Below are positions 2,549 through 27,353 of a DNA stretch of 29,083 nt, piece after piece. The position numbers and the translations under genes were made by a program. Numbering within the stretch: position 1 is the first letter of the stretch; each line of letters opens with the position of its first letter. The DNA comes from a virus (lineage: Duplodnaviria; Caudoviricetes), in IMG/VR virus record IMGVR_UViG_3300008255_000376, positions 1-29,083 of that record. One strand, written 5' to 3'. The notes beneath the pieces were generated by a model that saw nothing but the letters and a program-made list of their open reading frames with translations, was not told the DNA's origin and ran no database searches.

Positions 2549-4407
2549 TGTTAACCTACTATCCAACGGAAAAAGAAAAAGAAATCATTAGCATTATGCG
2601 TTCCGAAAAATCTGAATGGGAAACAGGGCAGGTTTGGGTTTCAGACAGGGTAAAATATCAAATGCTTGGCAGAGATGGAATTATTCAAAAAGCCAGAAAA
2701 AATTATCTTGGAAAATTTGATGTGGAGTTTGACGAAGTGACTGGAAAAAAGAAATACTTTCCTCCCCTAACAGAGGATATGGTAGAAACGATTGTCAAGA
2801 ATATTGATTTGGATTCTGTTGATATTCAAATCCGAGCCACTAATCCGAATGGATTTTCCTCAGCCCTGATTTTGAGATATTTAATCGGTTATTTTATGAG
2901 GAAAAATTATTTTGGCGAAGTTTTGAATGAGTTATTAAGGCAATTCTGTATTGACGGGACAATTGTTTTGAAAACTATTAAAAATTATGATTCTTTTCTA
3001 AAAAAACAAGTTATTAAAACGCCAATTCCAGATATAACTAATTTCTTAATTGACCCCTCGGAAAACAATATTCAAGAAGCAGGAGCAGTTATAGAAAGAA
3101 ATGTTTTAAAACTATCGGAAGCTAAAAAATATCCTTGGGATAATTTGGAATATTTAACAGGTTCAACCAGTATTGAAAGATTATATGGGCTTCAAAGAGT
3201 GACTTCGACTGAAGTTCCTTACATAGAAATTTTTGAAAGACACGGAGATTTGCCGATTGGCAAAAATGGAGAATGGATACCAGCAATAGCTATTGTTTCT
3301 AATTTAGATACTAATCCTGTTCCCCATAAAATAACTCCTAATTCTTCGGGGATTAAGCCCTATGAGGAATGCCGATTTAGAAAGATATTCGGCAGATGGC
3401 ACGGTAGAGGCGTTGGGGAGGTTTTATTAAGCACCCAAAGTTATCTTGCTGAAACTGTTAATTTGAGAATGAATCAAGCCAGAATCGCCCAATTGGGGCT
3501 ATGGAAAGTCAGGAAAGGTTCTGGCATTTCCCAGCAATTGCTGAGTTCTCTGGTTTCAGGAGGAGCAATTCCTGTTACCAGAATGGACGATATTAATGAA
3601 TTAAGAACTTCAGATATTAAGCCCTCATCTTATAAAGACGCCCAAGACGCTTATACTTGGGCACAAAGAACAACTGGGGCTTGGGAGGTTTCAAGAGGAG
3701 AAATGTTGCCAGCTTCCTTACCTGCTACTACTGCTGTTTTACAGGAAAGAGCAACAAGGAGCGGATATAATTTGCTTCAGGAAAATTTGGGTATTTTTTT
3801 ATCAAAAGTTTTTGAAAGACATATTATTCCTTTGATTTTGGAAACGATTAAAGATAAAGAAGTAATTTCTATTATCGGTTCGCCTGAAGAATTGAAAGAG
3901 ATAGACGAGAACTTTATAAACCAAGAAATGAATAGGCATATTTTGAATTCAATGACAAAAACAGATGAAAAAGGAAATTTTATTGGAGAAATTCCTAAAC
4001 CTGCATTTATTGAACATTTGCGGGGAATGTATAGAGATAATTTGAAACAATTTCAAAAAACAAGATATTTTTCAATTAATAAAAGAATGTTGACTAATTG
4101 GCAGTATGAAGTGGAAGTGTTTGTAACAGGAGAAGCGTTTAATAAAGCGGTTATGGTTAAGCAATTGACTGATTTGGTTATGGTTTATTCAAGGATACCA
4201 GGAATTAATATTGATACTACAGCAGTAATAAAAGAAATCTTTGACCTGATGGGACTTGGAGGTAGTCGTTTTTTACGCTCAAAAGAAGAAGAAACGATGA
4301 GACCGCCAAGATTAGAAGTTCCAAGACCAGCAATGCCTCGTCCAGAAACTGAAATGGTTGGTGAAGCTGCGACTTTGGAAAGAATGGGACGAGGAGGAAT
4401 TAGATAA
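2548..4407 (+). CDS. Portal protein (P22-like size and position)
   Basis: 619 aa directly after terL with a TAATG stop/start overlap; WHGRGVGEVL and ATTAVLQE segments are typical of podoviral portals. Confidence 0.85.
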   Translation: MLTYYPTEKEKEIISIMRSEKSEWETGQVWVSDRVKYQMLGRDGIIQKARKNYLGKFDVEFDEVTGKKKYFPPLTEDMVETIVKNIDLDSVDIQIRATNPNGFSSALILRYLIGYFMRKNYFGEVLNELLRQFCIDGTIVLKTIKNYDSFLKKQVIKTPIPDITNFLIDPSENNIQEAGAVIERNVLKLSEAKKYPWDNLEYLTGSTSIERLYGLQRVTSTEVPYIEIFERHGDLPIGKNGEWIPAIAIVSNLDTNPVPHKITPNSSGIKPYEECRFRKIFGRWHGRGVGEVLLSTQSYLAETVNLRMNQARIAQLGLWKVRKGSGISQQLLSSLVSGGAIPVTRMDDINELRTSDIKPSSYKDAQDAYTWAQRTTGAWEVSRGEMLPASLPATTAVLQERATRSGYNLLQENLGIFLSKVFERHIIPLILETIKDKEVISIIGSPEELKEIDENFINQEMNRHILNSMTKTDEKGNFIGEIPKPAFIEHLRGMYRDNLKQFQKTRYFSINKRMLTNWQYEVEVFVTGEAFNKAVMVKQLTDLVMVYSRIPGINIDTTAVIKEIFDLMGLGGSRFLRSKEEETMRPPRLEVPRPAMPRPETEMVGEAATLERMGRGGIR

Positions 4408-5199: not shown

Positions 5200-5874
5200 A
5201 TGGAAAAAGAAAACAAACTTTCTTCTTCCAACTCTGGAGATTTGGAGCTTGAATCTTCGGAAGGCGAAGAAAATGTTTCTGAAGCTGAAGACTTAGAAAC
5301 TTCAGAGAAGGAAGAAGAATATTACAAAAAGTTAACTGGGAGAGAAGACATTAAAGGCAAAGAGGATTTTGAGAAACACTACAAAGAATTAAGTAGTTTT
5401 GTGGGACAGAATCCAAAAGAATTGAAAGAGAAAGCAGAAGCCTTTGACCAAATGATAGAAGATGCCAATAAAATTGTGGATGAAGCGGAAGAGACAGGAG
5501 AGATACCTCCTCTGGAGAAAGAAATGCCAGAATTGGCAGAAGTTTCTTCTCTAAGAGATGAGTTCGACGATATGAAATTTCTCAAGAAAAACCCCCAAGC
5601 CGAAACTTTTATAGATGTAATAAAAGCAGTGGCTAAAGAAAAGGGGATTTCAAGAGAAGAAGCATATCAGGATAATCTTAAAGATTTGATAACTACTAAG
5701 TTGGAGGCGGATAAAACCAAAGAAGAAGAAAAGAGTAGCGTAGTTGAAAGTAAAACACGGGTAGCTCCAGGGATGACAGCAGGAGTTAACAAGTTAATTG
5801 AGGAAGTTCAAAAAACAGACTCAATAGACGCTAAACAAAAGCTGGTTGAAAAAATCCTTGAGCTATCTAAATAA
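5200..5874 (+). CDS. Capsid scaffolding protein
   Basis: Very acidic N-terminus, helical, located immediately upstream of the major capsid gene. Confidence 0.75.
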   Translation: MEKENKLSSSNSGDLELESSEGEENVSEAEDLETSEKEEEYYKKLTGREDIKGKEDFEKHYKELSSFVGQNPKELKEKAEAFDQMIEDANKIVDEAEETGEIPPLEKEMPELAEVSSLRDEFDDMKFLKKNPQAETFIDVIKAVAKEKGISREEAYQDNLKDLITTKLEADKTKEEEKSSVVESKTRVAPGMTAGVNKLIEEVQKTDSIDAKQKLVEKILELSK

Positions 5875-5878
5875 ATAA

Positions 5879-5962
5879 GTGCCAACAGGTGAATTAACTA
5901 CTTATACTGGAAAGGATGTTATTAAGAAAGATGTCCTTTCTCTTGTAGAAATCTTGACCGCT
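5879..5962 (+). CDS. Major capsid protein, exon 1 (28 codons, MPTGELTTYTGKDVIKKDVLSLVEILTA)
   Basis: GTG start 4 nt after the scaffold stop; ends in the U of GCT, which forms the P1 U-G splice-site pair; joins exon 2 in frame. Confidence 0.85.
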
Positions 5963-6564
5963 ATTGACAAAAATGTTTTCCTTGGCGGTCTAAAATCGCT
6001 TCTGATAAAGGGAACCACGGGAACCCTTACCAAGCAGCAAGTATGAACAAAAATAGGATGAAGATGTTGGCTTATGTGGCAGGTATAATAGACGGAGAAG
6101 GGCACATCGGGATAGCGAAACAAAATCATCCTAATTGTCAAACGAGAAAAAGATTAGTTGATTATAGTTTGAGAATAGCCGTAAAAATGTGCGATGGTGA
6201 TATAATAGATTATCTTTATGGAAACTTCGGAGGGCATACGGGAAGAAGGTTAGCGGAAGAACGAAAGTCAGAACAGTATTATTGGGTAATAAATTGCAAG
6301 AAAGCAGCCGAATTATTAAAACAATTATTACCCTTCTTGATAGGAAAAAAGCAACAAGCAGAATTGGCAATGAGATTTCAATTTAGAGCAGAAAGAAAAC
6401 AAGGTAAAAAAAGAAATATAGAATTTGATGAATGGGCATACCAAGAGATGAAAAGCCTACATAAAACACATAAGCCATCAAAAACATACACTCATACTTG
6501 CGGGCAGGTGCAGAGACTAAGCGAAGCGACCCCGAAAGGGGATGCGATAGTCCAAACATAAAAG
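5963..6564 (+). mobile_element. Group I self-splicing intron (602 nt) with homing endonuclease
   Basis: P1 GACCGCT 5956-62 / GGCGGTC 5984-90; P10 TTTTCCTT 5976-83 / AAGGAAAA 6565-72; P3 TCGCTTC 5996-6002 / GAAGCGA 6523-29; P4 AAGGG 6008-12 / CCCTT 6024-28; P6a GCAAGTATGA 6037-46 / TCATACTTGC 6492-6501; P7 GACTA 6515-19 / TAGTC 6548-52; P8 CCCC-GAAA-GGGG 6530-41; terminal G at 6564. Confidence 0.93.
6043..6561 (+). CDS. Intron-encoded single-motif LAGLIDADG homing endonuclease
   Basis: LAYVAGIIDGEGHI motif followed by typical FGG, YYW and LLPFLIGKKQQAEL segments; lies within the intron. Confidence 0.92.
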   Translation: MNKNRMKMLAYVAGIIDGEGHIGIAKQNHPNCQTRKRLVDYSLRIAVKMCDGDIIDYLYGNFGGHTGRRLAEERKSEQYYWVINCKKAAELLKQLLPFLIGKKQQAELAMRFQFRAERKQGKKRNIEFDEWAYQEMKSLHKTHKPSKTYTHTCGQVQRLSEATPKGDAIVQT

Positions 6565-7398
6565 AAGGAAAATTGGTTTCTGAATAATCTTGGGAAAAGT
6601 GCTGCTATTTCTACTGTTCATCAGACAATGACAGACACGCTACGCACTGCGGCAAGTGCCGCTGTAACAGAAGAAGCTGATTATACTAATCTTGAAAGAA
6701 GTGCTCCTTCATTAGTTCCTAATATTATTGAAATTATTGCTATTCCTTTTAGAGTAACCAGAACAGCATCGCAGGTTCAGTATTATCACGGACAAAATGA
6801 GTTAGCGAGACAGACAACGAAAGGTCTTATGGATTGGGGTAATGCTGTTGAATTTGATTTAGTTAGGTCAACACTTACTTCTGGAGCATCAGGAACAGCT
6901 CCAAAGATGGATGGAATAATTAGGGGTATTTCAAAATCCACTAATTATACCCTTGAGACATCTGGGACTGCGTTTTCTGCTTCAATCTTGAAAGGTTTGA
7001 TGAAAGCTAACTGGGATAACAGCAATGGAGATGTGGCGACTGATGTGTTTGTCGGGTCATTTCTGTCTGATGCGATGGATGATTTTACAAACAAATCCAA
7101 TGTGGTTGTCACTGGACTGAATGTCAGAGAATTGGTTACAGCAGTTGATGTCTTCGAGACAGGGCTTGGAAAAGTTAGAAAACACTCTCACCGATATGTC
7201 CAACAGTCAGGCGATGCTAATGCCAGAATTCTTGGTGTTAGACCAGAAAAGTTGAGACTTGCTTATTTGCAAAGACCGTTTATCGACACTGATTTAGCGA
7301 GGTCTGGTGATTATGATGCGAGAGCAGTAATCGGAAAATTGACATTGGAAATCATTAACAAAGATAGCAACTGGTTTGCAGACGGATATTTGAAGTAA
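6565..7398 (+). CDS. Major capsid protein, exon 2 (spliced product ~305 aa; resembles SU10/DUF5309-like HK97-fold capsids)
   Basis: The frame of the 6628 ORF is open back to 6562 (KENWFLNNLGKSAAISTVHQTMTD...); position after the scaffold; APKMDGI and IGKLTLEIINKDS segments fit this capsid type. Confidence 0.85.
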   Translation, partial: KENWFLNNLGKSAAISTVHQTMTDTLRTAASAAVTEEADYTNLERSAPSLVPNIIEIIAIPFRVTRTASQVQYYHGQNELARQTTKGLMDWGNAVEFDLVRSTLTSGASGTAPKMDGIIRGISKSTNYTLETSGTAFSASILKGLMKANWDNSNGDVATDVFVGSFLSDAMDDFTNKSNVVVTGLNVRELVTAVDVFETGLGKVRKHSHRYVQQSGDANARILGVRPEKLRLAYLQRPFIDTDLARSGDYDARAVIGKLTLEIINKDSNWFADGYLK

Positions 7399-7489: not shown

Positions 7490-7795
7490 ATGGATTTAAC
7501 AAAATTACAAAGAAAACAATTGATAGAAGAAATTGTTAGAGAGTTCATTAAAAAATTTCCAGTTGATTATATGGCTATTTGCCAATCAGTAAAAATTCAG
7601 AGAAAACTGAAAAAAGATAAATGGGGTTTAACAGATAAGGATAGTGAATATATGAGATGGACTTTAAGAATTCCTGCCAGATTATTTAGGATTTTGGATA
7701 AGAAATTAATTCAGCCGAGATTTCTTGAAGAGCAATGGGAAATTGACTGGTTTAAAAAAACATTTAAAGAATTTAGGGTTTCAGAAAGAGTTTAA
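7490..7795 (+). CDS. Hypothetical protein
   Basis: ATG at 7490 (in-frame GTG at 7481); about 101 aa; basic. Confidence 0.7.
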   Translation: MDLTKLQRKQLIEEIVREFIKKFPVDYMAICQSVKIQRKLKKDKWGLTDKDSEYMRWTLRIPARLFRILDKKLIQPRFLEEQWEIDWFKKTFKEFRVSERV

Positions 7796-7799
7796 CAAT

Positions 7800-10091
7800 A
7801 TGATTAGTCTTTGCCTTATTGTAAAAGCGGACAATAAAGAAGCAAAATTATTGGATAATTGTTTGAAATCTATTTACAAATGGGTTGATGAGATTTGTAT
7901 TACAACAGAACAAAATAAAGAAATTGAGAAAGTAGCAAAAAAATATAATGCCAAAATATCTTATTTTGAATGGATAAATGATTTTGCTCAAGCCAGAAAT
8001 TTTAATTTTAGTCAAGTAAAGGGAGATTGGATTTTGTGGGCAGATAGTGATGATATAATTGAAGGTGGGCAATATCTTGGAAAAGTTTTGGAAAGAATGA
8101 AAGAAGAAGGAGCAGATATTGGAGTATTGGATTATTTATATGATTTTGATAAATGGGGGAATGTAGTAGTTCAACACAAAAAAGCCCGCATTATTAAAAA
8201 TGATGGTTGTGTCAAATGGGTAGGAAAATTACACGAGGATTTAATGCCCCAAAGAGAAGTTAAATCTTATTTCATAGAGAATATAAAAATAATCCATAAA
8301 TCACCGCTAGAAAGAAAAGAAGAAGCAAAAGAAAGAAATCTTGAAATAGCACTTTTACAATTAAAAGAAGTTCCAGATGACCCAAAATGTATTTGGGATG
8401 TGGCTAATGCTTATTCATCTTTAGGAAAACATAAAGAGGCAATTCAGTATTATTTAAAATTTATTCCTGAAACAGGTTCGGAAGAGGAGAAATTCCTTGC
8501 CTGGCATAGAATGGCAGGGGCAATGAGAGATTTGGGATTATTTAATGAAGCGATTGAATCAGAATGGGAAGCAATGAAATTAAGACCTTGGTATCCAGAT
8601 GCTTATTTGGGATTAGGAGAAATTTATTACAAAATGGGAAAACCAAAATACGCCAAAGAATTTTTGGTAACAGGAATGGCAAAACCAGTTCCTGAAGATA
8701 CGGCAATTGTCTGGAATCCCAGAGATTACGATTATAACCCTTTGAGGATTTTATCAAGAGTTTATTTTGAATTGAATCGCCCAGAAGATGCCAAAAAATG
8801 TTTGGAACAATGCTTGAGACTCTATCCTAAAAATCAGGATATTAAAAATACAATTCAGGTTTTAGATAAGGAAATCAAGAAATTACAAGAGATAGATATA
8901 ATTTATGAGAAAGTCCAAAAAGCCAAAACATTGGAAGAGATTAAAAAACTTATTGATTCAGCCCCTTTTGAATTGAAATGTCATCCTAAACTGGTTTATT
9001 TAAAAAATGTCCATTTTATTAAAGATAAATCTTCGGGAAGAGATTTGGTGATTTATTGCTATCAGACAGATGAGCCATTTGACCCAGATATTATTTTGAA
9101 AAAAGGAAGAGGCGGGTCAGAAGAAGCGGTTTATCATATTTCAAAAAGATTAGCGAATTTGGGCTGGAATGTAACGGTATATTGTAATTGTGGTTATAAA
9201 GAAAGAAAATTTGGTAAAGTTTTATGGAAACCTTGGTGGTCTTTCAACCCCAGAGATAAACAGGATATTTTAGTGGTTTGGAGACATCCAGGCATATTTG
9301 AGATAGAAGGAATTAATGCCAAGAAAAAATATGTCTGGATTCACGATATTTTAACACCGCAGGAATTTACATTAAGAAGATTAGAACAAATAAATAAGAT
9401 TATTGCTCTTTCTAAATGGCAAAGAGATTTATTTCTCAATATCCCAGATGAGAAGTTTATGATTTCGTCTAACGGGATTGAGCCGAAAATGTTTGAAAAG
9501 AAAGTTAAAAGAAATCCTTATAGATTAATTTATACCAGTTCTTACGACAGAGGGCTTGAAACTTTATTAAGATTATTTCCGCTTATTAAAAAAGAAATTC
9601 CTAAAGCTGAATTACATATATTTTACGGCTGGGAATTATGGGATAAGGTTCATTCAGAAAATCCAGAAATGCTGGCGAAAAAAGAAACAATTTTGAAGTT
9701 ATTAAACCAACCAGGAGTTTATGAACACGGCAGGATTTCTCAAGAACGAATAATCGAAGAATATCAAAAATCAAGCATACTGGCTTATCCTACTGAATTT
9801 GGAGAAATATCTTTTATTAGCGGAATGAAAGCCCAAGTAGCAGGATGTATTCCAATTACTACTACTGCTGGTTGTTTAGATGAGACAATACAATTTGGAT
9901 TAAAAGTGGATAGTAAAAATATTTATTCCAATATAGATGCTCAAAAAGAATGGGTTGAAGGAGTGATAAATGTTCTTAAAAATCCGCCTTCAGAAAAAGA
10001 AAGAGAGGAAATGAAAAATTGGGCAAGACAAAAATTTAATTGGAATAATGTTAGTCAACAATGGAACAAAGAATTCCTATCATCAAATTAG
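7800..10091 (+). CDS. GT2-TPR-GT4 multidomain glycosyltransferase
   Basis: N-terminal ISLCLIVK...DFAQARNF...WILWADSDD...WVGKLHE (GT-A fold, SunS/flagellin-GT-like); central TPR helices; C-terminal GGSEEAV...YTSSYDRGL...YPTEFGEIS (GT-B fold). Likely start is ATG 7800. Confidence 0.9.
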   Translation: MISLCLIVKADNKEAKLLDNCLKSIYKWVDEICITTEQNKEIEKVAKKYNAKISYFEWINDFAQARNFNFSQVKGDWILWADSDDIIEGGQYLGKVLERMKEEGADIGVLDYLYDFDKWGNVVVQHKKARIIKNDGCVKWVGKLHEDLMPQREVKSYFIENIKIIHKSPLERKEEAKERNLEIALLQLKEVPDDPKCIWDVANAYSSLGKHKEAIQYYLKFIPETGSEEEKFLAWHRMAGAMRDLGLFNEAIESEWEAMKLRPWYPDAYLGLGEIYYKMGKPKYAKEFLVTGMAKPVPEDTAIVWNPRDYDYNPLRILSRVYFELNRPEDAKKCLEQCLRLYPKNQDIKNTIQVLDKEIKKLQEIDIIYEKVQKAKTLEEIKKLIDSAPFELKCHPKLVYLKNVHFIKDKSSGRDLVIYCYQTDEPFDPDIILKKGRGGSEEAVYHISKRLANLGWNVTVYCNCGYKERKFGKVLWKPWWSFNPRDKQDILVVWRHPGIFEIEGINAKKKYVWIHDILTPQEFTLRRLEQINKIIALSKWQRDLFLNIPDEKFMISSNGIEPKMFEKKVKRNPYRLIYTSSYDRGLETLLRLFPLIKKEIPKAELHIFYGWELWDKVHSENPEMLAKKETILKLLNQPGVYEHGRISQERIIEEYQKSSILAYPTEFGEISFISGMKAQVAGCIPITTTAGCLDETIQFGLKVDSKNIYSNIDAQKEWVEGVINVLKNPPSEKEREEMKNWARQKFNWNNVSQQWNKEFLSSN

Positions 10092-10648
10092 CCAGATTTA
10101 CTTGGATTAGAAATCAATGTTCAAATTCTGACAAAATAATAGATATTGGAAGTAATAAGGGATATACTTTTACAGATTTTTATAGGAAAAATATAGTTTC
10201 AGTTGATATTGATTTATATGATATAGAGAATTTTGTTAAAGCCGATGCCCATAATTTACCTTTTAAAGATAAAGAATTTGATATAGCAGTTTTGGGAGAG
10301 ATTTTAGAACATGTTGAAGACCCAATTCAAGTTTTAAAAGAGGCAAAAAGGGTGGCTAACAAAATTGTGATTACTGTTCCTAATGAATATGAATGGACAG
10401 AAGAATTAAATCCTTTTATGCCAGCCGAAGAAGCAGCAAGAAGACAAGGATTAACTTTAGAAGAAATGGTAAAAAAAGATAATCCCGCCAAAGAACATTA
10501 TTCAGCTGATGGATATAAACACATATTTCACAATCGTTATTATACTTATGAAATGTTAGAAAATCATTTAAAAGAAGCTGGAATAAAAAATTATAAAATA
10601 TCAAAATTGATTCACGATAAATTTGTCTTTTGGGTAGTAATATGTTAA
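10061..10648 (+). CDS. Class I SAM-dependent methyltransferase (Methyltransf_11-like)
   Basis: IIDIGSNKG, ADAHNLPFKDKEFD, EILEHVEDP, LKEAKRV. Confidence 0.88.
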   Translation: MEQRIPIIKLARFTWIRNQCSNSDKIIDIGSNKGYTFTDFYRKNIVSVDIDLYDIENFVKADAHNLPFKDKEFDIAVLGEILEHVEDPIQVLKEAKRVANKIVITVPNEYEWTEELNPFMPAEEAARRQGLTLEEMVKKDNPAKEHYSADGYKHIFHNRYYTYEMLENHLKEAGIKNYKISKLIHDKFVFWVVIC

Positions 10649-11595
10649 TCAAGTTAGCATTTGTCTGGGACTGGGCAAATACTATTCCCCAATTAACAAA
10701 TTGGAAAGATGGATTGGCTGCTGCTTTAAAAATTTTATCAAATGAATGGGAAATCAAGGTTTATAGTATAGGACAGGATATGGTTTTTCCTGCTCCTTAT
10801 ATGCCGATTATTTTGAAATCCTCACCAGAATTATTAGCAAAAGAAATCCTTGATTTTAAGCCTGATGCAATATTGTTCTTTGCTGATTTTACCAGACCAA
10901 CTATCCCTCATTTAGCTGGGAAAGGAATACCAATGGCTTTATGTTTAGCTGGCGGAACCTTTAGAAATTATGTTGATGCTTTTGATTTGATTTTTGTAGA
11001 ATCAGAGGTCTATAAAAATCAGCTTGAAAGCGAAGGAAAAAATGTTATCAAAGCATTTGGGACGAATACAGAACTTTTTAAACCGATAAAACAACCGAAA
11101 ATCTGGGATGCTATTTTTCCTGCTACTTTTGCTCGTTGGAAAAGACATTATCTATTCGCTGGGGCAACAGGAAATACAGGGTTAGCAGTTGGTTGGATAT
11201 ATCAAGGTCACGAAACAGAATGTTGGCAGGTTTGCCAAGAAAAAGGAACAATGGTTTTGCCCTATGTAGATGCTGAAACTTTGAATTATCTTTATAATGC
11301 TTCCAGAACTTGCGTGATAACTTCTGATAAAACTGGTGGAAGTCAAAGAACGGTCTTGGAAACAATGGCAACTAACATACCAGTAATTGTTATGGCAGAT
11401 AGTGATAAAACTACAGAATATGTAAAAGAATGCGGAATAGGAGAAATAGTAGAACCAAGTGTAGAAGCAATCCAAAAAGCAGTAGAAAAATGGAAAAACA
11501 AACAAGTCAATACGAGAGAGTGGGTGATAAAGAATTATTCAGCAGAAATTTACGCCAAAAAGTTGAAGGAAGGAATCTTGAGTATATGCCCTTAA
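10642..11595 (+). CDS. GT4-family (GT-B) glycosyltransferase
   Basis: GTNTELFKP, WKRH, LNYLYNASRTCVITS...GSQRTVLETMATNIPVIV. Likely start is ATG 10642. Confidence 0.85.
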   Translation: MLIKLAFVWDWANTIPQLTNWKDGLAAALKILSNEWEIKVYSIGQDMVFPAPYMPIILKSSPELLAKEILDFKPDAILFFADFTRPTIPHLAGKGIPMALCLAGGTFRNYVDAFDLIFVESEVYKNQLESEGKNVIKAFGTNTELFKPIKQPKIWDAIFPATFARWKRHYLFAGATGNTGLAVGWIYQGHETECWQVCQEKGTMVLPYVDAETLNYLYNASRTCVITSDKTGGSQRTVLETMATNIPVIVMADSDKTTEYVKECGIGEIVEPSVEAIQKAVEKWKNKQVNTREWVIKNYSAEIYAKKLKEGILSICP

Positions 11596-12227
11596 TTTCA
11601 ATTCTTACGCCAACGATTCGTCCAAAAGGATTAGAAATTGTCCAGAAATGTCTTGCTGAACAAACTTATCAAGGCTTTGAATGGTTAGTAGAAGTAGGGA
11701 TACCCGAAAAAGGAAATGATTTATGTAAAGCCATTAACCGAATGTTAAAAAGAGCAAAGGGAAAATGGATAGTAATGCTACAAGATTATATCAAGATTTT
11801 GCCTGATGGATTAGAAAGATTTTTAAAAGTAGCAGATGAAAAAAAGTTTATTACTGGCTCAATGGGGATTACCGAAGATTGGAAAGATATTAAATGGGAC
11901 TGGCGGGCTTTTAGAAAGTTTGAGCCAATTCAATATCACGAATGCGAGGCAGATTGGATGATAGCACCTAAGAAAGCATTTTTTGAGCTTGGCGGATATG
12001 ATGAGGAATACGATAATTACTGGGGAATGGAAAATGTTAATATAGCTTTTCGGGCAGAAAAATTAGGATATACTTTTTGGGTTTTGTCTGACAATAAAGC
12101 TATTCAATGGGCTCACGATAAATTTATAAAACATCCTTTTCGTGCTCGTTGGAACCCCCTATTTCATCAAGATAAAATAAGACAAATTGATATGGGCGAA
12201 AGTCCAATCAAATTAAATTATCTATGA
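11586..12227 (+). CDS. GT2-family (GT-A) glycosyltransferase
   Basis: ISILTPTIRP...QTYQGFEWLV...AKGKWIVMLQD...GGYDEEY...WGMENVNIAFR. Likely start is ATG 11586. Confidence 0.85.
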   Translation: MPLISILTPTIRPKGLEIVQKCLAEQTYQGFEWLVEVGIPEKGNDLCKAINRMLKRAKGKWIVMLQDYIKILPDGLERFLKVADEKKFITGSMGITEDWKDIKWDWRAFRKFEPIQYHECEADWMIAPKKAFFELGGYDEEYDNYWGMENVNIAFRAEKLGYTFWVLSDNKAIQWAHDKFIKHPFRARWNPLFHQDKIRQIDMGESPIKLNYL

Positions 12228-25752: not shown

Positions 25753-25909
25753 ACCAAAACAATTAAACCAATTACAAATAGCATTTCTTCAGCCCCATAA
25801 TCTTAAAAGGTTGAGAAGTCTTTTTACGATAAAGGGATTAGCCAAAAGATATGGGATTAGCGAACAAATAATTCGGAAGCGGTTAAAAGAAATAAATGAG
25901 GAAACCTAA
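25745..25909 (+). CDS. Small HTH DNA-binding protein (54 aa)
   Basis: TIKGLAKRYGISEQIIRKRL helix-turn-helix pattern. Confidence 0.6.
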   Translation: MSKPKQLNQLQIAFLQPHNLKRLRSLFTIKGLAKRYGISEQIIRKRLKEINEET

Positions 25910-26051
25910 ATTCTGTATAAAATGTGGGAGACGAATAAGAAAGGTCGGGTCTTCCTACTGCGAAATTTGTCTTTTAGAAGTTTATTTATCTCGTAAAAAA
26001 ATGGGTAAAACAAAAAAGAAAAAAAAGAAAAAAGGCAAAAAGAAAAAATAA
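25896..26051 (+). CDS. 51-aa zinc-ribbon protein with poly-Lys tail
   Basis: CIKCG...YCEIC followed by MGKTKKKKKKKGKKKK. Confidence 0.55.
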   Translation: MRKPKFCIKCGRRIRKVGSSYCEICLLEVYLSRKKMGKTKKKKKKKGKKKK

Positions 26052-26065
26052 CCTAACATAAAACT

Positions 26066-26188
26066 ATGATTAACTTTAAATTACAAGAAACTGAAACACC
26101 AGTTGAAGATGCTCCTGTTGAGGAAACCCCCGAAGAAACACCTGTTGAAGAAACACCTGTTAAGGAAACGCCAGAAGGAACTGAATAA
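26066..26188 (+). CDS. 40-aa acidic ETP-repeat peptide
   Basis: MINFKLQETETPVEDAPVEETPEETPVEETPVKETPEGTE; A-rich leader like the other genes. Confidence 0.55.
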   Translation: MINFKLQETETPVEDAPVEETPEETPVEETPVKETPEGTE

Positions 26189-26193
26189 CAATT

Positions 26194-26334
26194 AACCCTG
26201 CGAACGCTATCCTACCGTTTGTTTTGGGCTTTGCTTTAGCAGAGTTTAGGGTTTGAATACTCTCTCTGAATAACTTTTTTATTTAAGCCCAAAAAAACAA
26301 TGAGGCAAGGAAGGGTTGGCAGGGTTTTTGTTTT
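26194..26334 (+). other. Long imperfect hairpin ending in a T-tract (terminator-like element or ncRNA)
   Basis: AACCCTGC/GCAGGGTT, TTTTGGGCTT/AAGCCCAAAA and CAGAG/CTCTG nested stems, then TTTGTTTT. Confidence 0.55.
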
Positions 26335-26385
26335 CCACAGGTTATTCACAAAGGGACTTGACAAGGGTTTATGGTTTGATAGAAT
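26331..26385 (+). promoter_or_regulatory. Tandem DnaA boxes followed by a sigma70-type promoter
   Basis: TTTTCCACA 26331-39 and TTATTCACA 26342-50 both match TTWTNCACA; TTGACA 26358-63, 16-nt spacer, TGnTAGAAT ending at 26385. Confidence 0.65.
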
Positions 26386-26485
26386 TATTTAATGAAGCAA
26401 TAGTGTTCGGTTTTGGTCTAACCATGGCTAAACATAATCGCCCCGCCTAATTCTTAACCGAACACGGCGGGGTTTCGTTTTACAA

Positions 26486-26765
26486 CACATATCCTAAGCA
26501 TATCCCATTTGAGGCTCTGTTTACGACCTAACAACCTCTATGAGTTAAAAGATGAATTGAATACCATCGCAACTTCTTTTGGAGAAGTGCCATTGTCCCT
26601 CTTTCATCTTACTCATCTATCGTTATCATTTCCTTCGGGAAGTGTGGGGAGCGTGAAGAAATCTCTGATGAAGTTGCCTGCTGGGGCGTTGAACTAAATG
26701 GGCAGAGTAAAAGTTCTTCACGAGCAAAAGGGCAGAAAGAAATCCAGCATTGCCGAAAATATGTG
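26486..26765 (+). ncRNA. Candidate structured non-coding RNA (~280 nt), family not recognised
   Basis: Closing stem CACATAT/ATATGTG, several internal stems, a cUUCGg tetraloop, and pseudoknot and kissing-loop complementarities (see findings). Confidence 0.55.
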
Positions 26766-26836
26766 AAAATAGTTTTCTTTCTTTCTATCTAAAAGATAGA
26801 AGAGGTCGTTTAGGGCAGAAAGAGAACGGCATTGTT

Positions 26837-27046
26837 ATGTTAGAGAAATCAAAAAAAGAAAGAAACCGAATAAGGCAAGAATTTCTTTTAACTTTCTTTG
26901 ATAAAAATTCAGGATATTCTGAGAAAGAAATTAATGGTTTTTGGTTAATAAAACAATGGAACGGAAATCAGAAGATATGGCAAGTGGCAATTTATACAAA
27001 AGAAAGTTTTAGGAAATATAATTATCTGAGAAATAAAAATAGGTAA
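26837..27046 (+). CDS. Hypothetical protein (69 aa)
   Basis: ATG 26837 is more plausible than the TTG at 26750, which lies inside the structured RNA. Confidence 0.55.
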   Translation: MLEKSKKERNRIRQEFLLTFFDKNSGYSEKEINGFWLIKQWNGNQKIWQVAIYTKESFRKYNYLRNKNR

Positions 27047-27126
27047 ATCTTGAAGTCGTCAAAACTATTCGGTAAAGTGGAAAGGTCGCATAAAAAGTTA
27101 ATTTAAAATTTAAAGTGAATAAAAAG

Positions 27127-27185
27127 TTATCCACTTTTGTTCGTAAAATCGGGCTATTGACAGATACTTTGGAATAATATAAGAT
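27127..27185 (+). promoter_or_regulatory. DnaA-box-like site and sigma70-type promoter for the small early genes
   Basis: TTATCCACT 27127-35 (one mismatch); TTGACA 27157-62, 17-nt spacer, TAAGAT 27180-85. Confidence 0.6.
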
Positions 27186-27203
27186 TATTATAGACAAACA
27201 ATT

Positions 27204-27353
27204 ATGAGATTTATTAAACAGCCAGAAAAAGATTACGCCAAAGGAAGACGGGCAATAAAAAGAATAGAAGATATGAGAAAAGATATTGACACTATCAGGG
27301 AGGCTTCGTGGCGGTTAAAAAATAAAATTAAAGGTCGTAAAAAAAAGAAATAA
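27204..27353 (+). CDS. 49-aa basic hypothetical protein
   Basis: ATG 18 nt after the -10 element; stop 5 nt before the next start. Confidence 0.55.
   Translation: MRFIKQPEKDYAKGRRAIKRIEDMRKDIDTIREASWRLKNKIKGRKKKK

Follow-up and report, generated by a model that had tools for sequence, protein, structure and literature searches.

A conserved structured domain ahead of a small phage gene: a candidate cis-regulatory leader RNA

A virus record of 29,083 nucleotides (nt) in IMG/VR (IMGVR_UViG_3300008255_000376), called the window in what follows, contains a short region, positions 26486-26765, in which many segments are complementary to one another. What does this region encode, and does its complementarity reflect an RNA that folds? 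A first-pass annotation had proposed a novel structured RNA with a pseudoknot and kissing loops, and a direct check of the window found every string that it listed in its place. Comparison with two homologous loci points to a conserved, non-coding, structured domain on the + strand. This domain may well act as a cis-regulatory leader RNA for a conserved gene of 69 amino acids (aa) that begins shortly downstream.

Homologous loci were collected through the 69-aa protein. An alignment of its homologues led to 2 viral and 31 metagenome loci (33 in all), one of which, L005, is a 34-kb contig of the same phage. The other 32 come from different contigs, and L018 and L034 are the only two whose upstream regions are related in sequence to that of the window. 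A search of the 33 loci with the upstream region using nhmmer gave E 3e-8 for L018 and E 0.03 for L034. A covariance model of 26619-26724, run on 28 sources, returned the same two loci only, with scores of 27.8 and 22.4 bits. Scans of DNA for the pattern of the core found 119 loci, all attributable to chance; among viral contigs they found 0, and among genome contigs 4, again all chance. The comparative evidence consists of three sequences (the window, L018 and L034), with a further locus, L003, as an architectural analogue. Runs X5, X7 and X9 contain the same strain, which differs at one position only (26453 C>T), so population variants across these habitat runs are uninformative on pairing.

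The core of the proposed structure is made up of a closing stem, a tetraloop hairpin, a nested 3' arm and a pseudoknot. This core survives comparison with the two homologues.

The closing stem, P1, joins the two ends of the region. In the window it pairs CACATAT with ATATGTG. Its counterpart in L018 is TACAATACTT/AAGTATTGTA followed by GGTTT/AAACC (10+5 base pairs, bp), and in L034 it is TCACAAGTA/TGCTTGTGA followed by GTCAA/TTGAT (9+5 bp); in neither case are the letters related to those of the window. When each sequence is folded separately, the pair probability of P1 is at least 0.95 in all three (0.96 in the window, 0.95 in L018 and 0.98 in L034). The stem encloses about 280 nt in the window and 345-390 nt in the two relatives. 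Between the segment that follows the terminator and the segment that precedes an A-rich stretch, the longest Watson-Crick match in the three loci is 7, 9 and 7 bp, lengths reached with a shuffled 5' segment in 167, 8 and 252 of 5000 trials.

Four short blocks are common to the three loci in the interval between terminator and gene: CATAWCCCA, ATCGTT, GGGGA and a core of the form TGATGAARTT-N10-GCNTTNAACTAA. A tetraloop hairpin, P3, directly follows ATCGTT in each case. It reads CATTTCC-TTCG-GGAAGTG in the window, CTTC-TTCG-GAAG in L018 and GCC-GAAA-GGC in L034, so that the hairpin named in the first-pass annotation recurs in both homologues with a different stem.

The nested 3' arm, in which P4 (CGTGAAGAA with TTCTTCACG) surrounds P5 and both surround a small hairpin, P6, shows compensatory changes. 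P5 is paired in all three sequences, as CTCTG/CAGAG, CCCTG/CAGGG and CCTTG/CAAGG, and two of its pairs are compensatory. On a MAFFT alignment blind to structure, 82% of the cells in P4, P5 and P6 are paired, as against 37-57% when the 3' partner is slid along the alignment. Double-sided changes affect 8 pairs on the same alignment, compared with 2-5 after sliding, and none of 500 shuffles reaches that count. An alignment fitted to the covariance model has 96% of these cells paired and 7 double changes, against 0-3 when slid.

A pseudoknot would cross this arm. Its 3' strand is the segment between AACTAA and the 3' strand of P5, and in all three loci this segment has a partner in the 5' region: CCCATTT/AAATGGG (7 bp) in the window, and CTCCTT/AAGGAG and CTCTTG/CAAGAG (6 bp each) in the homologues. 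Shuffled sequences reach these lengths in 47, 74 and 120 of 5000 trials. The 5' strands lie close together across the loci, at positions that are not strictly equivalent. The crossing pairing suggested from the window thus recurs with different letters in two relatives. The same cannot be said of the kissing loops, for which the loop of P6, TGCTGG 26679-84, had been matched with CCAGCA. That match is 6 bp long in the window (reached in 224 of 5000 shuffles), 4 bp in L018 (2665 of 5000) and 5 bp in L034 (782 of 5000), which is the level of chance in the homologues. Among the three sequences, compensatory changes are seen in P4 and P5, and the loop-loop contact has no support.

Between the conserved landmarks lies a central segment of 134, 229 and 150 nt in the three loci. 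In the window it holds a hairpin closed by GAGG/CCTC and a long hairpin with strands ATGAGT..AAGATGAA 26540-56 and TTCATCTTACTCAT 26603-16, enclosing ACTTCT 26572 / AGAAGT 26583. The homologues bear other hairpins here. Because this arm differs freely in length and content, its conservation cannot be judged.

Support for the helices comes from the two homologous loci and not from the fold of the window alone. When whole homologous regions were tested against shuffled sequences, L018 gave z -2.89 and L034 z -3.17. Within the window, the 106-nt core 26619-26724 is the sole part that stands out when taken alone (z -2.52). The + strand had a lower z than the - strand in each of four regions (-1.67 vs -1.24; -3.28 vs -1.92; -3.37 vs -0.05; -4.75 vs -3.79), and the G-U pairs and UUCG/GAAA loops are compatible with the + strand only. 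The region is also richer in G and C than its surroundings, as had been noticed from the window: the GC fraction is 0.40-0.425 over 26100-26800 and 0.26-0.33 in the flanks.

A similar architecture may exist without similarity of sequence. L003, whose protein is 51% identical, has no detectable likeness to the window in its leader DNA; even so, about 270 nt at the equivalent position are closed by a stem of 15 bp, and their z is -4.65. In L006 there are nested long-range helices with z only -1.06, and in L009 a closing stem appears in the minimum-energy fold only.

Table 1. Features of the domain and its surroundings, in order along the window.
Feature	Position	Strand	Basis or remark
Sigma-70-type promoter-like site TTGACA-16-TAGAAT, preceded by TG	26358-26385	+	scan, 11/12 matches
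Leader helix GTGTTCGGTT / AACCGAACAC, 10 bp	26403-12 / 26456-65	+	inverted repeat, 100% complementary
Terminator-like hairpin CCCCGCC / GGCGGGG, 18-nt loop, then T-run TTTCGTTTT	26441-26481	+	read from sequence
P1 5' strand CACATAT	26486-26492	+	pairs with 26759-26765
Conserved block CATATCCCA	26499-26510	+	by eye; CATAACCCA in L018, GATAACCCA in L034; overlaps pseudoknot 5' strand CCCATTT 26504-10
Central arm, variable	26511-26618	+	GAGG/CCTC hairpin and long ATGAGT...ACTCAT hairpin
ATCGTT, hairpin P3, GGGGA	26619-26650	+	P3 is CATTTCC-TTCG-GGAAGTG 26627-44
P4 (26652-60 / 26714-22) around P5 (26663-67 / 26703-07)	26652-26722	+	covariance model and alignments
Conserved core TGATGAAGTT-N10-GCGTTGAACTAA	26665-97	+	inside P4/P5
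Small hairpin P6	26676-87	+	inside P4/P5
Pseudoknot 3' strand AAATGGG	26696-702	+	inside P4, before P5 3' strand
Direct repeat copy 1 AGGGCAGAAAGA, perfect, 12 nt	26729-26740	+	3' tail of domain, after P4 3' strand
CCAGCA, complementary to P6 loop	26744-26749	+	present in window, unsupported in homologues
P1 3' strand ATATGTG	26759-26765	+	pair probability 0.96
Pyrimidine tract TTTTCTTTCTTTCT, then hairpin CTATC-TAAAA-GATAG with purine-rich 3' arm	26773-26802	+	duplex calculation
Direct repeat copy 2 AGGGCAGAAAGA	26812-26823	+	ends 13 nt before start codon
Conserved 69-aa gene	26837-27046	+	7 homologues, 57-70% identity

What lies around the domain bears on what it may do. It sits in a gap of about 650 nt, 26190-26836, that has no credible genes and no open reading frame (ORF) with a family match. 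The three loci share one order of elements: a sigma-70-type promoter, a leader of 90-150 nt, a terminator-like hairpin, the domain and the gene. An upstream promoter had been mentioned in the first-pass annotation, and the site listed in Table 1 agrees with it; equivalent sites are found upstream in L018, L034 and L003. The terminator-like hairpin between promoter and domain had been overlooked. In the window it also went unflagged by a hairpin scan, because the scan allows loops of 3-8 nt only. At the equivalent place the scan flagged L018 on the + strand and L034 on the - strand only, with T-runs on both sides, and left L003 unflagged.

In the window, the leader helix crosses the stem of the terminator, with no spacer between their 3' strands. 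This crossing suggests that the two are mutually exclusive, in the manner of an antiterminator and a terminator, and the leader helix could serve as a putative antiterminator. The same crossing order of two leader helices is seen by eye in L003 (about 3545-3605) and in L007. Neither a promoter for the domain itself nor a terminator after it was found by scan. An extended -10 promoter at TGTGAAAAT (26761-69) was considered; it is possible in the window and in L018, the scan did not flag it, and L034 does not have it.

The promoter region has further features of its own. A stretch of about 30 nt around it (26355-26387) matched other contigs in 3 of the 4 runs examined (X5, X7 and X12). In X7 and X12 a contig carrying this stretch then diverges; the contigs of X5 itself break there. 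This suggests a repeated early-promoter cassette in this phage or related ones. A motif resembling a DnaA box, (A)AAGTTATCCAC, occurs 12 times in 100 kb of related loci, with 0.8 expected, usually 0-60 nt upstream of a TTGACA promoter. It is found at 27124-27134 in the window, in L003, L019, L023, L026 and L034, and in others. A version with one mismatch, GTTATTCAC, adjoins the -35 element of the promoter at 26358 (by eye).

The downstream ORF, which starts with the ATG at 26837, has seven homologues and is for this reason taken as a real gene. Its product is predicted to fold as a helix, three strands and a helix (pLDDT, the predicted local distance difference test, 89). It matches no Pfam or PHROG family and has no usable match in the ESM Atlas. 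A RelE-like identity was not accepted, since the best fold match in the PDB has E 0.46. Because no structural match is significant, the predicted fold gives no clue to function. In several relatives (L007, L027, L012, L014 and others) the gene comes right after the terminator or after another gene; in L007 and L027, by eye, a T-run is followed directly by its ATG. The domain is therefore not obligatory for the gene. In L014, the contig is 574,464 nt long and may represent a huge phage or a cell that carries a prophage; the homologue there is 65% identical and starts 3 nt after the end of another ORF.

The tail of the domain is linked to the start of the gene by a direct repeat. The window contains just two perfect copies of AGGGCAGAAAGA, spaced 83 nt apart. 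L018 has its own perfect 13-nt repeat, of unrelated sequence, at the two equivalent places and with a spacing of 82 nt. Between the copies in the window lies the pyrimidine tract, which can pair with either one; the duplex has -8.6 kcal/mol here, and L034 gives -10.4 and -13.1 kcal/mol. Inspection by eye shows similar hairpins, with a pyrimidine and a purine arm, in L018 and L034. In L003, two partners are available to the 3' strand of P1: the 5' strand of the same stem (-15.4 kcal/mol) and a near-copy of this 5' strand, 42 nt upstream of the gene (-7.4 kcal/mol). The 28 gene starts in the window have A/T-rich upstream sequences and almost nothing resembling a Shine-Dalgarno sequence, which hints at a host with Shine-Dalgarno-independent initiation.

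How might such a domain work? Reading through the leader terminator would produce it as the 5' untranslated region ahead of the 69-aa gene. One repeat copy or the other would then pair with the pyrimidine tract that lies between them (in L018 and L003, with the 3' strand of P1), and the start region would be free or masked depending on how the domain is folded. We infer such a switch from the repeat copies and their alternative pairing partners.

Several observations fit a cis-regulatory leader. The domain lies between the promoter-like site and the gene, on the same strand as both, and the same holds in L018, L034 and L003. Its secondary structure is conserved with compensatory changes, in three sequences only. 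The repeat copies in the tail and before the start might form an expression platform; alternative duplexes of -5.4 to -13.1 kcal/mol are possible, and the partner varies between loci. The first-pass annotation had offered a ribozyme, a protein sponge or a replication RNA as possible roles, and no evidence was found for any of these. A fixed place after the leader terminator and directly before one conserved gene favours a cis-acting leader instead.

Other observations weigh against this interpretation. The region is common to just three sequences, two of them on contigs of 1.2-1.4 kb. Folding better than shuffled controls had been expected, and the 280 nt of the window do not show it: the + strand fold has z -1.24, with 27 of 200 shuffles as good (-1.67 in a repeat run), and the - strand fold has z -1.55. 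Taken alone, the 110-nt cores of L018 and L034 give z +1.08 and +0.94, which is no improvement on shuffled sequence. Pair probabilities for P4 and P5 are low in L018 (0.47 and 0.03) and in L034 (0.11 and 0.40). Several helices of these two loci were first found by eye, and the segments used in the shuffle tests were picked after the helices had been seen. The repeat is imperfect in L034 (by eye) and its partner differs between loci; in L018, the 3' strand of P1 pairs with it weakly, at -5.4 kcal/mol. A terminator-like hairpin separates the domain from the only recognisable promoter. Finally, ATCGTT is separated from the TAA stop by 75, 81 and 78 nt in the three loci, each divisible by three, which is a hint of coding.

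The same evidence can be read in other ways. The domain might work in trans as an independent structured RNA (ribozyme, scaffold or protein-binding RNA) that is cut from the messenger RNA of the gene or transcribed apart from it. Its size of 280-390 nt, end-joining stem, pseudoknot and conserved unpaired blocks resemble those of autonomous RNAs, and the relatives in which the gene directly follows a terminator (L007 and L027, by eye) get by without it. We nevertheless consider such an RNA unlikely: scans revealed no promoter or downstream terminator of its own, no ribozyme family gave even a weak score, and all copies related in sequence, like the L003 analogue, occupy one and the same position ahead of this gene. 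Action in cis is also favoured by the repeat that the tail and the start region have in common. It is improbable, too, that the region acts as DNA, whether as operator or iteron sites, as an origin, or as a miniature mobile element with the closing stem as its terminal inverted repeats. Perfect direct repeats 82-83 bp apart, a short palindrome between them, DnaA-box-like AAGTTATCCAC motifs adjoining early promoters in this phage group and the absence of the domain from some relatives could all be explained in this way. Its inverted repeats, however, vary in sequence and stay complementary, as is expected for RNA pairing and not for protein sites or transposon ends; moreover, the window holds no other copies, and only the + strand has the G-U pairs, the stable tetraloops and the lower z-scores. 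A miniature inverted-repeat mobile element in particular was rejected, as the terminal pairing strands differ among three syntenic copies.

Another reading is that the helices arose by chance in an intergenic spacer that is diverging around a few conserved motifs of promoters or regulators. This would account for the non-significant z of the window and the instability of the homologue cores alone, and it draws on the small number of sequences (three) and on helices chosen after the fact. It would not account for a closing stem predicted independently with high probability in three sequences, for z of about -3 in L018 and L034, or for a structure-blind covariation count above every control, and we hold it to be scarcely probable. 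A coding explanation seems less probable still. Here the conserved core would be a short translated ORF, either a 9-codon upstream ORF or the C-terminus of a small protein, and the helices would be secondary. An ATG and a TAA bound a frame of nine codons in all three loci (MKLPAGALN in the window, MKFGLPAFN in L018 and MKLRPSALN in L034), third-position changes in it preserve K and A, and the frame is open for 79, 42 and 53 codons with ATCGTT in phase with the stop. Since the genes of this phage have no Shine-Dalgarno sites in any case, the absence of one at the short frame argues neither way. The longer ORF, 26509-26697, shows no coding-type conservation, in line with what the first-pass annotation had assumed: a search of 5.8 billion proteins turned up no homologue of its 62-aa product, L018 resembles it in the last 13 codons only, and the parts of the frame upstream of these are unrelated across the three loci. 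A coding origin would also leave unexplained the compensatory changes in P5 and P4, which flank the ATG, and this ATG abuts a helix in a GC-rich context, whereas real starts in the window are A/T-rich. A conserved, non-coding leader RNA remains the interpretation that we prefer.

The phage itself is uncultivated. The window is estimated to be about 73% complete, and DNA nearly identical to it is present in 24 groundwater or aquifer metagenome runs; a blastn search against deposited phages found no match to it. Scans of viral contigs with single proteins found nothing with the endolysin or the 69-aa protein, and with the SLT-domain protein only an unrelated locus, L002. All sizeable ORFs of the window are on the + strand. 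They include genes for a T4-type large terminase (assigned by Terminase_6N and phrog_2), an SU10-like portal, capsid and adaptor, tail proteins, a peptidase-type lysin and the SLT-domain protein, and a series of small genes follows downstream of 26837. Shortly before the gap, a small zinc-ribbon-like ORF (25896-26051) terminates in a run of lysines (KKKKKKKGKKKK).

The structural genes contain two further peculiarities. The gene for the SU10-type major capsid protein looks interrupted, as the ORF 6628-7398 covers only positions 46-284 of the SU10_MCP profile. Directly before it is an ORF for a LAGLIDADG/HNH-type endonuclease (6043-6561), and another ORF (5200-5874) lies further upstream. The locus 5200-7398 may contain an intron or a homing-endonuclease insertion; no Rfam intron match was found there. 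A cluster of ORFs for glycosyltransferase, TPR and methyltransferase proteins (7725-12227) lies within the structural module, between the capsid and adaptor genes.

Is the domain a member of a known RNA class? None had been recognised at first sight, and searches bore this out. Rfam 15 gave 0 matches at the gathering threshold over the whole window. A permissive scan of 26150-27250 returned only weak, unrelated rows, the best with 16.7 bits against a threshold of 37.8, and the homologous loci gave only a sub-threshold microRNA (miRNA) hairpin. ARAGORN found 0 genes for transfer RNA (tRNA) or transfer-messenger RNA (tmRNA) in the window.

Some more specific candidates were tried and rejected. 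A hammerhead ribozyme was suggested by CTGATGA, which is present in the window and in L018; L034 has TTGATGA, L018 has TTTAAC where the window has GTTGAAC, and Rfam gave no hammerhead match. A retron or diversity-generating element would involve a reverse transcriptase (RT), and there is no RT family among the 29 ORFs of the window (a genome covered to about 73%) and no second copy of the region in the window; the record of L003 likewise has no match to RVT_1. A likeness to half of a GAAA-tetraloop receptor at CCTAAG 26493-98 was dropped: no TATGG partner is seen by eye, and the homologues do not have CCTAAG.

The domain is best described as a candidate RNA class of a known general kind, the cis-regulatory structured leader, represented by three sequences and one architectural analogue. 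We regard it as a good candidate but not as an established class. If both its fold and its role in cis hold, it would be an undescribed and unusually large leader RNA controlling the first early gene of uncultivated groundwater phages. It would then offer a concrete example of the timing of early expression in phages whose genes seem to have no Shine-Dalgarno sites. Its putative arrangement is that of an attenuator close to the promoter and then a folded domain in which the start region has a decoy copy, and it would add a family to the known phage RNAs.

A broader proposal can be made more tentatively, and we think it unlikely to be correct. Phages that infect groundwater bacteria might have a new class of large pseudoknotted riboregulators, each of 280-390 nt and closed by a long stem, which sense a signal from host or phage and set the time at which the first early gene is translated, by means of a decoy pre-start copy that competes for a pairing partner. 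If this were true, L003 and perhaps L006 and L009, with the same architecture and unrelated sequences, would extend the class to a broad and fast-evolving one.

Many leaders of this kind have been proposed from large surveys of the regions between phage genes. One such survey proposes 10,006 candidate structured RNAs upstream of phage genes, cis-regulatory types included (Fremin, Bhatt and Kyrpides 2023, PMC10690425). The elements described there and the domain are alike in that they are structured, lie between phage genes, consistently precede one gene family and have covariation in their support. The domain is much larger than a typical leader hairpin of that kind and is closed by a long-range stem. 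A text search of part of the survey's supplement found no entry for the domain.

Another resemblance is to the packaging RNA (pRNA) of phage phi29. The ends of that RNA (RF00044) are paired, two of its loops are mutually complementary, and it is encoded near early genes. The domain would likewise be a phage RNA near early genes with an end-closing helix and two complementary loops. An RNA of this type was nevertheless rejected, because the complementarity between the loops is not kept in the homologues and Rfam gives no match. The phi29-type packaging motor does not fit either, since the window has the terminase named above together with an SU10-like portal and capsid instead; a T4-type large terminase is not known to require a pRNA.

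GOLLD and ROOL are large non-coding RNAs of phages or prophages, described as free-standing genes that are often close to tRNAs. Like them, the domain is several hundred nt long, has multiple helices with a pseudoknot and is associated with a phage. It differs in lying in a leader before a protein gene, with no tRNA nearby and no Rfam match to either family.

The leader as a whole recalls the unit of phage lambda formed by PR', 6S RNA and tR', which is controlled by Q antitermination. In both, a terminator lies some 100-200 nt after a strong promoter, and a block of genes comes next. The likeness extends to the leader only; a Q-like protein was not identified, and the structured domain has no counterpart in lambda.

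The general kind that the domain most resembles is that of folded 5' leaders with regulatory or autoregulatory functions, such as the pseudoknot in the leader of T4 gene 32, the leaders of ribosomal-protein genes and translational riboswitches. We know of no riboswitch or autoregulatory leader with a decoy arrangement in which the tail of the domain carries an exact copy of the pre-start sequence. What the domain would share with the T4 gene 32 leader and with riboswitches is a folded 5' leader, a pseudoknot and a possible choice of pairings that frees or masks the start of the gene.

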